Positions 3,001-6,000 of a stretch of 64,000 nucleotides of DNA are shown one piece after another; within the stretch, counting starts at the first letter, position 1; each line of letters opens with the position of its first letter. Position numbers: made by a program. Source of the stretch: Dissulfurispiraceae bacterium (GTDB lineage: Bacteria; Nitrospirota; Thermodesulfovibrionia; Thermodesulfovibrionales; Dissulfurispiraceae). The DNA is taken from the NCBI GenBank assembly GCA_036781645.1, contig DAIQAO010000004.1, positions 1 to 64,000 of the forward strand, written 5' to 3'.

Positions 3001-6000
3001 CATGCCAGTCATTCTCTGCCAGACCATCTTCTATAGACAATATAGGATATTTATCAACTAACGCAGCGTAATAATCCACAAGATCGGAGGATGATATCGT
3101 CCTGCCTTCAAAGTTATATCTACCATCTTTGAAGAATTCAGATGATGCTACATCGAGGGCTATCAATACTTCATTGCCAGCTGTATAACCGCTTTCGTTA
3201 ATCGCTTTGATTATAATTGATATAGCCTCTTCATTGGAATTCAAGTTTGGGGCAAAGCCTCCTTCATCACCGACGGCGGTATTCAACTTCTGCTTTTTTA
3301 ATATTGACTTAAGCGTTTGGAATATCTCGGCTCCAGCTCTCAGAGCTGATGAAAAATCCTTAAATCCAATCGGCATTATCATAAATTCCTGAATGTCGAG
3401 ATTATTATCCGCATGAGCCCCGCCATTTATAAAATTCATCATGGGTATCGGGAGTTGCCTTGCATTGCAGCCTCCTATGTATCTGTAAAGAGGCACTCCC
3501 ACTTCATTTGCAGAGGCGTGGCATACAGCCATAGAAACACCCAAAATAGCGTTAGCCCCCAGTCTTTCTTTATTTTCTGTTCCATCGAGCTTTATCAATG
3601 TGTTATCAAGAGCTGCCTGTTCATGGGACTCCATTCCGATTATTTTAGGGGCAATTTCCTTAAAAATATTTTCTATAGCCTTCAGGACACCCTTGCCGTG
3701 AAATCTCTTTTTATCGCCGTCACGAAGCTCAAGCGCTTCCCTTTCACCTGTGGAAGCGCCGGAAGGGACGATTGCTGAGCCAGACGCGCCGCTTGCCAGG
3801 ATGACGCTTACCTCTATGGTTGGATTGCCTCTTGAATCCAGAACCTCTGCTGCTATTATATCTACTATCTCGCTCATGATGTTCTCCTTAATATTTATAG
3901 TATATAGTATTATATAGGGTCAATCACCCTAGTTTGGAGACAAACCAATTTTTTGAGGAGCATGAATAGCAATGCCGTGCAAATCCTCCGCAGCCTCCCT
4001 AAGTCCTTCAGAAAGTGTGGGATGGGCATGAATCATATCAGCAAGCTCCATTACAGTTATTCCTTCCTTCATAGCAAGCGCCCCCTCGTGAATCAAATCG
4101 GAGGCGTGCGGACCTATAATATGGACACCCAAAATCTTGTCTGTCTTTGCATCGGCTATTATTTTAAATAACCCTATTATTTCACCTATCGCATGCGCCT
4201 TGCCCAATCCCCTAAATTGAAAATGCCCTGTTTTGAATTGAATACCCATTTCCTCAGCCTGATGCTGCCTGAGACCAACCGAGCCAATCTCTGGCGAGGT
4301 GAATATTGCTGCAGGAACTACGGAATAATCAATCGTTTTATTAATTCCGCAGGCATTGCAGGCCGCAACCATCCCCTCTTCCGATGCCTTATGGGCAAGA
4401 AGCATGCCACCTGTAACATCACCAATGGCGTAAATGTTAGGCACATTGGTCTCCATTTTTTCATTTACAACTATCTCGCCTCTTTGACCCAGTTTAACCC
4501 CTGCATTTTCTAATCCTATCTCTTCTGTATTAAAAGACCTCCCTATAGAAACGAGTAGAGTGTCTCCTACAAACTCCCTACCGTCAGAGGCATAAACATG
4601 GATGCCGTCAGCCCTTTTTTCCAACTTTTCCAATCTGATGCCTGTAAATAATCTTATGCTTCGTTTCTTAAATTCCCTCTGCAGGATGTCTGATATTTCA
4701 TGGTCTTCAGTTGGGATCGCCCTCGGCATCAACTCGAACATAGTTACCTGTGTGCCGAGTTCGCTAAATATAAAGGCAAACTCCGAACCTATTACACCAG
4801 CACCTACAATAAGGAGATTTTTAGGAATGGATTTAATATGCAATGCATCGTTACATGAAATAATATTCTGACCGTCGAAGGGGAAAATAGGAAGCTGCGC
4901 TGGTTTTGAACCTGTAGCAATAATAATTTTTTCTGTCTTAATTATTTCCGAAGAGCCTTCTTTTTTTTGAATCTCCACCTGATTGGGTGATAGGAGCCGG
5001 GCTTTTCCATAAATAAGTTTTATGCCCCAGCTTTTAAAAAGTGATTTTATGCCTTTTATTTGGGTTGAGACAATCTTTTCCTTACGTGCCATTATTTTTG
5101 AAAGATTAGGGGAGATAGAGCCGGAAAAATCAATCCCGTAGTCCTCAAGTCTTCTTGCCTTGTGTAGCACTTCTGTAGAAGCTATTATTGCTTTTGTTGG
5201 AATGCATCCCCAGTTAAGGCATGTCCCGCCAACTTCGTCGGATTCTATAACAGTTGTCTTTGCCCCAAGCTGGGAAGCCTTTAAGGCAGCTACATACCCG
5301 CCCGGACCAGCTCCTATTATTGTAAGATTCACCTTTCTTCCTCTTCGAGATACGCCTCATAATCGTCAAAGTCCAACAGGTCATCAAGTTCCGAAGGATC
5401 CTTCAATTCGACAGCTACTATCCACCCTTTTCCGTATGGGTCTTCATTTATTAACTCGGGATTGTCAGCAAGTTTTTCGTTAACCTCAACTATTATACCG
5501 CTGACAGGGGAAATTACCGCAGAAGTGGTTTTGGTAGATTCAATTTCTGCCATCTCTGTATTCGCCTCAACAGTAGTATAGACATCCGGCAGGTCAATAT
5601 AAACGATATCGCCAAGTGCATCCTGAGCATAATCGGTAATGCCGATCAGGGCTTTTTTCTTAGATGGCTTCACCCATGTATGTTCCTTATGGTATCTGAG
5701 ATTTTCAGGATTCATATGTGTCCCCTCCACCTTTTTATTATTAAAAACTATACATGACTTTATTACCATAGTTTTTTTTCTTTGTCAAGGAAAAACTTAC
5801 CTGAGTTATTAGTGGAACCTTAAAAATATTCAAAATCAATGTTAATTTAAAATTTCTTCAGAGCGCAATTTACACGTGATAGATTTTGCAACAACATATT
5901 TACTAATATATAAGTTCATTGGCGAGAGAAGACATCTCCATATCTCCCACTAAAGATTATGTTTTTTGTCCCCAAAATAGAGATAGAACTTTTTTCTGAC

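Follow-up and report, generated by a model that had tools for sequence, protein, structure and literature searches.

In acetogens, lpdA follows metF (PMC4600107), in agreement with the preliminary description of the locus studied here, which had noted gcvH-lpdA near Wood-Ljungdahl genes in these organisms. LpdA and GcvH are very abundant proteins of unknown function in C. autoethanogenum (PMC9040625), and lpdA and gcvH-acsV deletion strains of this organism exist (PMC12723745). The metF, metV, lpdA and gcvH genes of E. limosum have consecutive tags, and on methanol its GcvH goes up and its LpdA down (bioRxiv 2022.11.04.514945). Electron flow from NADH through LpdA and GcvH to methylene-THF reductase (MTHFR) has been drawn as an acetogen model (PMC8760232); the redox idea is already in print for these bacteria, where it has been long suspected and is unproven. 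One published account puts the gene linkage down to nothing more than a substrate common to MTHFR and glycine cleavage (PMC8515935). How much ATP the Wood-Ljungdahl pathway yields depends on what the abundant LpdA and GcvH do in acetogens and on which donor supplies MetVF with electrons. Related systems are LbpA, a free GcvH-like lipoyl carrier for which electron exchange with NAD via E3 has been proposed (PMC6067878), the LipM-GcvH-LipA-LipL scaffold relay of Bacillus, and the Hdr-type MTHFR of Moorella and Sporomusa (HdrCBA-MvhD-MetVF; PMC9430772).

Here we analyse a gcvH-lpd pair in a window of 64,000 nucleotides (positions 1 to 64,000 of contig DAIQAO010000004.1, assembly GCA_036781645.1) from a Dissulfurispiraceae bacterium of the order Thermodesulfovibrionales. 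The module is real, conserved and ordinary in its parts. By the sequence features compared, its mode of work would match that of the orphan LpdA-GcvH pair known from acetogens (C. ljungdahlii, C. autoethanogenum, C. aceticum, E. limosum and A. noterae), with which it shares H and L proteins without adjoining P and T and a link to metVF. By the same features it is neither a glycine cleavage system nor an LbpA nor a scaffold relay. The present data extend the acetogen idea by an order in which P and T proteins are missing altogether, a signature of three residues, two separate moves into metVF operons, and counter-examples to single-client readings; with its cultured members, the order represents a clean test case. 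Calling the module a new role for lipoate, as had been suggested, was overstated, given the free lipoyl redox carrier LbpA (PMC6067878) and the printed LpdA-GcvH-MTHFR model (PMC8760232). No paper on the gcvH-lpd module in this order was found by a literature search outside of which most subscription journals lay; these organisms may figure in the genome tables of PMC10332631.

Organization of the gcvH-lpd locus

The features of the locus, all on the minus strand, are as follows.

44-2263, minus strand: GH57 glycoside hydrolase gene, a conserved housekeeping neighbour
2253-2594, minus strand: ftsB-like gene, a conserved housekeeping neighbour
2597-3877, minus strand: enolase gene (eno), a downstream neighbour conserved in 23 of 32 loci
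3929-5332, minus strand: lpd, dihydrolipoyl dehydrogenase, 467 aa (TIGR01350, 536.6 bits against a cut-off of 408.8)
5329-5715, minus strand: gcvH, gcvH-type lipoyl carrier, 128 aa (TIGR00527, 150.6 bits against a cut-off of 115.85)
5677-5679, 5518-5520 and 5512-5514, minus strand: Thr13, Ala66 and Ile68, the methylamine-pocket replacements of GcvH
5722-5728, minus strand: ribosome-binding site GGAGGGG, preceding the ATG at 5715
5760-5788, minus strand: predicted gcvH promoter, TTGACA (5788-5783), 17 nt, then TAATAA preceded by TG

Both gcvH and lpd are intact and overlap by 4 nt, with the GTG start of lpd lying over the gcvH stop. The gcvH start at 5715 is favoured over a longer ORF start at 5769 because GGAGGGG sits before the 5715 ATG. 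A promoter pattern similar to the predicted one, picked post hoc from the sequences, occurs upstream of gcvH in 45 of 69 loci, a set that includes near-duplicates, against a mean of 1.3 and a maximum of 5 in shuffles; a generic promoter scan did not have the gcvH promoter on its list. Control by Rex was rejected, the Rex-like boxes being the promoter −10 region and the Rex domain being found in none of five genomes searched. No Rfam family matched within window positions 1-20000. Enolase is likely co-transcribed with gcvH-lpd; it was not counted as a partner and served as a rate control (see below). A 461-aa gene that follows lpd in 13 of 32 loci and matches nothing in Pfam or the atlas was rejected as a general partner because it is absent from this genome.

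The products resemble the H and L proteins of glycine cleavage in family scores above cut-off, a lipoyl lysine, an acidic surface and the Lpd catalytic motifs. As read from the sequence, Lpd has the Cys38/Cys43 disulfide in CLNWGC and an HPTLSE motif, while the lipoyl lysine of GcvH is Lys62 within ESTK. GcvH is acidic (30 D/E against 11 K/R) and has no cysteine. In this it is unlike LbpA, which is basic with two conserved cysteines near its termini (PMC6067878), and being cysteine-free it is not an LbpA.

Lipoate and complex genes in the source genome

The source genome (2.19 Mb in 154 contigs, 99.98% complete, contamination 0) was searched with family profiles. GCV_T, GDC-P and 2-oxoacid_dh had zero matches in it and E1_dh had no match above cut-off. 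Three strong Biotin_lipoyl matches are, as labelled from their sequences, carboxylase-type proteins with MKM motifs. LipA is encoded on contig C22 (373 bits against a cut-off of 310), and its CX4CX5C, CX3CX2C and RSSW motifs are intact. A single LplA-B_cat protein of 255 aa, encoded on contig C59, scores below the NCBIfam ligase cut-offs and would be LipM-like, a label that comes from family and size. By our reading, the neighbours of the LipA and ligase genes are housekeeping genes. The preliminary description of an orphan lipoyl module (gcvH-lpd, LipA and LipM, without GcvP, GcvT, E1 or E2) is therefore confirmed by these profile searches, and the module differs from a 2-oxoacid dehydrogenase complex in that neither E1 nor E2 was found in the source genome.

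Unlike LbpA, which comes with an sHdr cluster, its own ligase and LipS1/S2, the pair has eno, ftsB and GH57 as neighbours and is accompanied by LipA and one LipM-like ligase, a comparison judged from these genes rather than from a direct LipS1/S2 search. A LipM-like ligase, LipA and GcvH are also the components of the Bacillus relay; unlike in that relay, there is no LipL-like second ligase, and the acceptor E2 is absent from 91 of 131 genomes of the order. A motif miss suggested that GlyA was missing, which further search showed to be wrong.

Distribution across Thermodesulfovibrionales

The order was sampled evenly with 131 genomes at least 90% complete, the source genome included; because kin are not independent, the counts below are descriptions and not tests. 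GCV_H was present in 127 of the 131, as a strong match in 124 and as a weak paralog only in three. Lpd exceeded its cut-off in 122, LipA was found in 127 and an LplA-type ligase in 126. By contrast with the glycine cleavage system, GcvP and GcvT were each found in 0 of 131 genomes by order-wide profile searches whose controls were positive in 10-11 of 14 reference genomes. The E1 search covered the source genome; E2 was present in 40 of the 131. The order pattern noted previously, with GcvH common, GcvP absent and E2 in a minority, is thus reproduced in the larger sample. All four genes (gcvH, lpd, lipA and ligase) were kept in 82 of the 91 E2-less genomes, as counted from our tables, and in families f7-f10 the module was retained with E2 in 0 of 34 sampled genomes.

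According to the listed coordinates, read by eye, lpd adjoins gcvH in 119 of 122 genomes; of the other three, two are split at contig ends and one, G049, is truly separate. Of 78 ORFs, a set that includes duplicates, 76 carry the lysine in ESTK and 2 in ESAK. Both results bear out what had been noted of relatives. The PF21948 ligase match is single-copy in 125 of 126 genomes, a count in which a very divergent LipL could be missed. No lpd family recurred in the twenty E2 loci examined, and almost every genome has a single Lpd, which therefore likely serves as E3 too where an E1/E2 complex exists.

Loss of the methylamine pocket

Pocket positions were taken from an alignment with solved H proteins and from the residues named in bioRxiv 2021.03.28.437365, which names Cys-68, a position that is Asp in the PDB sequence. 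In the GcvH of the source genome, Thr, Ala and Ile take the places of E. coli E14, D68 and Y70. Across 59 loci of the order, E14 was kept in none, and neither an acidic residue at D68 nor an aromatic one at Y70 was found in any. The outgroup comprised 51 loci outside the order. In the 35 with gcvT or gcvP nearby, E14 was kept in 35, D68 was acidic in 35 and Y70 aromatic in 33; in the other 16, E14 was kept in 14, and two Nitrospiria proteins were pocket-less. The 120 nearest homologs show the same pattern as the order. A search of 50% representatives revealed no named pocket-less relatives among its top 150 proteins, whose 156 domains had all three residues in 89 cases and none in 8 (with the lysine in one of these 8).

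Since the pocket shelters the aminomethyl arm, its loss would fit a carrier cycling only between dithiol and disulfide, and GcvH has likely been reworked into a redox-only lipoyl carrier, a pure electron shuttle. The E14/D68/Y70 signature offers a sequence test separating redox-only from glycine-cleavage H proteins. Moreover, the shared-substrate account of gene linkage cannot hold here because the order is without P and T and its H protein is pocket-less.

We compared this pattern with Acetoanaerobium noterae. The GcvH of its gcvT-H-P operon keeps E14/D68/F70. The second GcvH, in the Wood-Ljungdahl cluster with its gene between acsB and acsV, has Leu at 14 and Ile at 70, and its 120 nearest homologs, compared from sequence alone, have Ile or Val at 70 in 119, no Glu14 in 89, and D68 in all. 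The order proteins therefore resemble acetogen GcvH in the Ile at the Y70 position and in the loss of E14, which is mostly lost in acetogens and wholly here. They differ in lacking D68, which the homologs of the A. noterae protein keep, and, in a rough tree, in forming a separate clade. Unlike some acetogens, such as A. noterae, which have a full glycine-cleavage system elsewhere, all 131 order genomes are without P and T; and unlike in acetogens, the pair usually lies outside Wood-Ljungdahl clusters under its own predicted promoter. Identity to the A. noterae protein is 42%. In this GcvH tree of 128 columns, with bootstrap not settled, the order and acetogen proteins fall into separate supported clades (99/89 and 96/97), and glycine-cleavage proteins sit between the two on unstarred branches. 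The pocket changes common to both groups are thus probably convergent, a point on which the tree is not decisive.

Selection on the module in E2-less lineages

For dN/dS analysis, the 22 closest pairs among 32 genomes were listed, most of them saturated, and five unsaturated E2-less pairs were used. In these pairs gcvH gave 0.034-0.061, lpd 0.037-0.148 and the enolase control 0.032-0.088. The metVF-less pair G033/G086 gave 0.017 for gcvH, 0.068 for lpd and 0.094 for lipA. Such purifying selection in E2-less pairs (0.02-0.15) indicates that the module is not a relic. The median Lpd/enolase distance was 1.7 in E2-less pairs against 1.17, so Lpd diverges faster without E2, which fits the loss of one constraint. 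Combined with retention in the E2-less genomes and pocket loss, these results support gcvH-lpd as a stand-alone NADH-linked lipoyl carrier, the part of the preliminary description that stands.

Moves of lpd into metVF operons and genomes without MetVF

AcsB (124), MetF (123), DsrA (125) and GlyA (128) are near-universal in the 131 genomes, and co-occurrence cannot therefore single out the methyl branch; exceptions and gene moves are what informs. G081, the sole genome with two strong gcvH genes, has an oxidoreductase-metV-metF-gcvH-lpd row, with an lpd-less gcvH left at the old site. Three metagenome loci of its lineage repeat metV-metF-gcvH-lpd and a fourth has metF-lpd; among metagenome metF loci generally, 76 of 80, many on short contigs, have neither gcvH nor lpd. 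In G049, lpd lies between folD and metVF genes on the opposite strand. The Lpd tree sets the two moves apart as two events. Against a tie to MetVF, the adjacency comes to no more than these two, most metagenome metF loci are without it, and both clusters carry their own flavin oxidoreductase-MvhD fusion. Both breaks of the ancestral gcvH-lpd unit thus landed lpd in a folD-metV-metF operon. Like the hosts of acetogen LpdA-GcvH, the source genome encodes ACS and MetVF, although its own gcvH-lpd pair is not in a Wood-Ljungdahl cluster, in contrast to the pair of the G081 lineage and the lpd of G049. Of the readings weighed, we favour gcvH-lpd as an NADH-linked lipoyl electron carrier for the Wood-Ljungdahl methyl branch (MetVF), at about even odds.

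MetVF cannot be the sole client, however. G033, G044 and G086 have cleanly lost metVF from the folE-folD operon and show no other MetF match, and the module is kept under purifying selection. The absence of MetVF from G066 and G124, which also miss the main folD, is probably an assembly gap; this follow-up of MetVF loss covered these five genomes and left out G034, G088 and G107. Every strong-gcvH genome except G066 matches AcsB or MetF. No single client fits every genome, and the counter-examples rule out single-client readings. Given that some genomes are without MetVF, a second client probably exists, perhaps on the acetyl-CoA synthase side.

Of 21 metF loci, most have plain MetVF, five an MvhD-fusion-type flavin oxidoreductase and three an Hdr cluster. 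The source genome has the latter on contig C33, hdrC-hdrB-hdrA-mvhD-metV-metF, the identical six-gene cluster to that of Moorella and Sporomusa (PMC9430772). HdrB has both cysteine motifs, HdrA (1014 aa) is of the two-flavin type, and an in-frame TGA in mvhD probably encodes selenocysteine, judging from the sequence. This cluster is outside the window and apart from gcvH-lpd, and the Hdr type occurs in only 3 of the 21 loci. A complex prediction for MetF, MetV and GcvH scored 0.00, gave no answer and was counted neither way.

Weighing of other clients

That the module is kept in genomes without MetVF, ACS or DsrA would also fit a dithiol reductant of general use, fed by NADH and working alongside thioredoxin, whose housekeeping client might be a peroxidase or an enzyme that forms disulfides. 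Precedents are the lipoyl-driven Ohr and AhpD peroxidases; gcvH-lpd heads a housekeeping operon, with a thioredoxin-fold redoxin ahead of gcvH in 3 of 32 loci and an OsmC gene nearby in one. However, one query found no OsmC homolog in the source genome, its thioredoxin-like and probable thioredoxin-reductase ORFs, identified by motif, also count against this, and the metVF-operon moves and the pocket changes common with acetogens are left unexplained; we regard this reading as rather unlikely. A role on the acetyl-CoA synthase side, as CODH/ACS disulfide reductase or as donor for the corrinoid reactivase AcsV, follows an acetogen proposal (PMC4600107) and agrees with the position of gcvH in A. 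noterae, with AcsB in the MetVF-less G033, G044 and G086, and with AcsB and two AcsV-like genes in the source genome. By contrast, gcvH or lpd occurs in none of 21 acs loci, and G095, G066 and G103, without E2 and without AcsB or a full AcsC/D match in assemblies 94-97% complete (120-260 contigs), keep gcvH, lpd and lipA, which makes this role unlikely as the main one.

As an example under its boldest reading, the preliminary description had named Hdr-like or DsrC chemistry of dissimilatory sulfur metabolism, for which the module would shuttle electrons or sulfur. DsrA is nearly universal in the order, the source genome encodes DsrA, a DsrC-like ORF and Hdr-like genes, and LbpA with E3 is a published sHdr sulfur-oxidation model (PMC6067878). 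Nevertheless, GcvH lacks the two cysteines conserved in LbpA (PMC6067878), its acidic surface is of GcvH type (bioRxiv 2026.10.01.755906), and G054 (6 contigs, 99%), G011 (20 contigs, 100%), G069 and G128 keep all four genes without DsrA and E2. The only gene moves that inform on the client lead to the folate methyl branch, and the only full-length HdrB match of the source genome sits in the metVF cluster. The dissimilatory sulfur link is accordingly improbable, and the proposed Hdr link survives in an altered form, as HdrB of a methylene-THF reductase cluster. A relic, or mere scaffold for lipoylating a 2-oxoacid dehydrogenase E2, which the preliminary description had itself raised as an objection, could draw on E2 in 40 genomes with Lpd likely as their E3 and on the faster divergence of Lpd in E2-less pairs. 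It is largely refuted by selection in E2-less lineages, and families f7-f10 keep the module without E2; moreover, a second LipL-type ligase is missing and a scaffold has no need of Lpd, so that we hold this explanation to be very improbable. Finally, the link to folate genes and the finding that E. coli lipoyl-H is active by itself in vitro (bioRxiv 2021.03.28.437365) might suggest minimal glycine synthesis or cleavage by an H protein without P and T. That activity needed E12, E14, S67, residue 68 and Y70 (same source), three of which are replaced order-wide, and GlyA is present in 128 of 131 genomes, making such a system scarcely credible.

Proposed electron route to methylene-THF reductase

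For the methyl-branch carrier, family knowledge suggests that the single ligase would octanoylate Lys62, that LipA would insert sulfur and that Lpd would reduce the lipoyl disulfide with NADH. The dithiol could then reduce the Fe-S clusters of MetV in plain MetVF, the commonest layout, or those of HdrB where an Hdr-type cluster is present, as in the source genome. We tentatively raise the possibility that Lpd-reduced lipoyl-GcvH is the direct physiological donor of anaerobic methylene-THF reductase (through MetV in plain MetVF, through HdrB in Hdr clusters). On this view, Nitrospirota and clostridial acetogens would each have turned the glycine-cleavage H protein into a thioredoxin-like carrier, with the same pocket residues lost. 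NADH has a potential of −320 mV. With lipoamide at −290 mV (PMC6067878) and methylene-THF at −200 mV (PMC9430772), transfer from NADH through lipoamide to methylene-THF would run downhill, allowing a simple donor role without bifurcation; such a role alone would not allow methyl-THF oxidation. Plain MetVF has no NADH site, and bifurcation by LpdA-GcvH was considered highly unlikely (PMC8760232). With reduced thioredoxin, which is a protein dithiol, MetFV runs at 7.4 U/mg, and Lpd with lipoamide failed with C. ljungdahlii MetFV, for which ferredoxin was the best donor (PMC8515935). Free dihydrolipoate was no help to the Hdr-type enzyme of Sporomusa, and protein dithiols were left open (PMC9430772). 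What these unsuccessful published assays supplied was lipoamide or lipoate in free form, not bound to protein.

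Gene neighbourhoods of metVF and folD

In the Dissulfurispiraceae genome under study (G000), the methylene-tetrahydrofolate reductase genes metVF, encoding the favoured client of the lipoyl carrier, lie in a six-gene cluster:

C33:13031-19958 (loci L135, L213), hdrC-hdrB-hdrA-mvhD-metV-metF, with an hdrA product of 1014 aa

The mvhD gene of this cluster carries an in-frame TGA at a position where cysteine is conserved, and this codon probably specifies selenocysteine. The genes upstream of metVF vary among relatives in the order Thermodesulfovibrionales, which possess plain MetVF, an oxidoreductase-MvhD fusion, or HdrA of two lengths. 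A 698-aa flavin oxidoreductase-MvhD fusion is also encoded in G000 (C8:19037-21133), where it is solitary amid housekeeping genes and shares 68% identity with the relatives' fusions located upstream of metVF.

Elsewhere in G000, folD is followed by a gene reading as an acetogen-type fchA (C11:13016-14528). This folD shows just 36-40% identity to two order queries and is perhaps a replacement by transfer. In three other genomes of the order (G033, G066 and G086), none with a MetF match, methyltransferase, corrinoid protein and AcsV-like genes lie at loci (L352, L354, L355) that also contain a second folD and genes for a DsrM-like membrane protein and a protein resembling HdrD/TfrB; this gene set could represent an alternative methyl-oxidation module.

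Other loci in the order and beyond

Family f10 possesses acsE-acsD-acsC-acsB without a CO dehydrogenase gene alongside (L118-L121), differing from most other families, and this set may be an incomplete pathway supplying methyl-THF. The 2-oxoacid dehydrogenase E1/E2 loci (L095-L114) lack their own lpd, and an ADP-forming acetate-CoA-ligase-like gene is usually next downstream.

Between lpd and the enolase gene, a conserved 461-aa protein without Pfam or atlas match or known family is encoded at L020:9788-11173 and 12 further loci. Apparent frameshifts splitting lpd and dsrA in near-closed assemblies (L164 of G071; G023:C1:1668205-1669267) may reflect sequencing error or recent decay.

In at least nine order genomes, though not in G000, a GcvH-like domain missing the lipoyl lysine is fused to a response-regulator receiver (L336-L345, e.g. 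L337:6644-7420), and the genes downstream of this fusion resemble those of NADH-dependent hydrogenases or formate dehydrogenases. The protein P0123 (1391 aa) combines in one chain three lysine-less GcvH-like repeats, an FAD-linked oxidase and an iron-sulfur domain of the CCG type.

In Acetoanaerobium noterae, one record (NZ_CP154629.1; L368, L370) carries a Wood-Ljungdahl cluster as well as a complete operon for glycine cleavage; this record was deposited as a plasmid of 2.6 Mb and looks like a chromosome.
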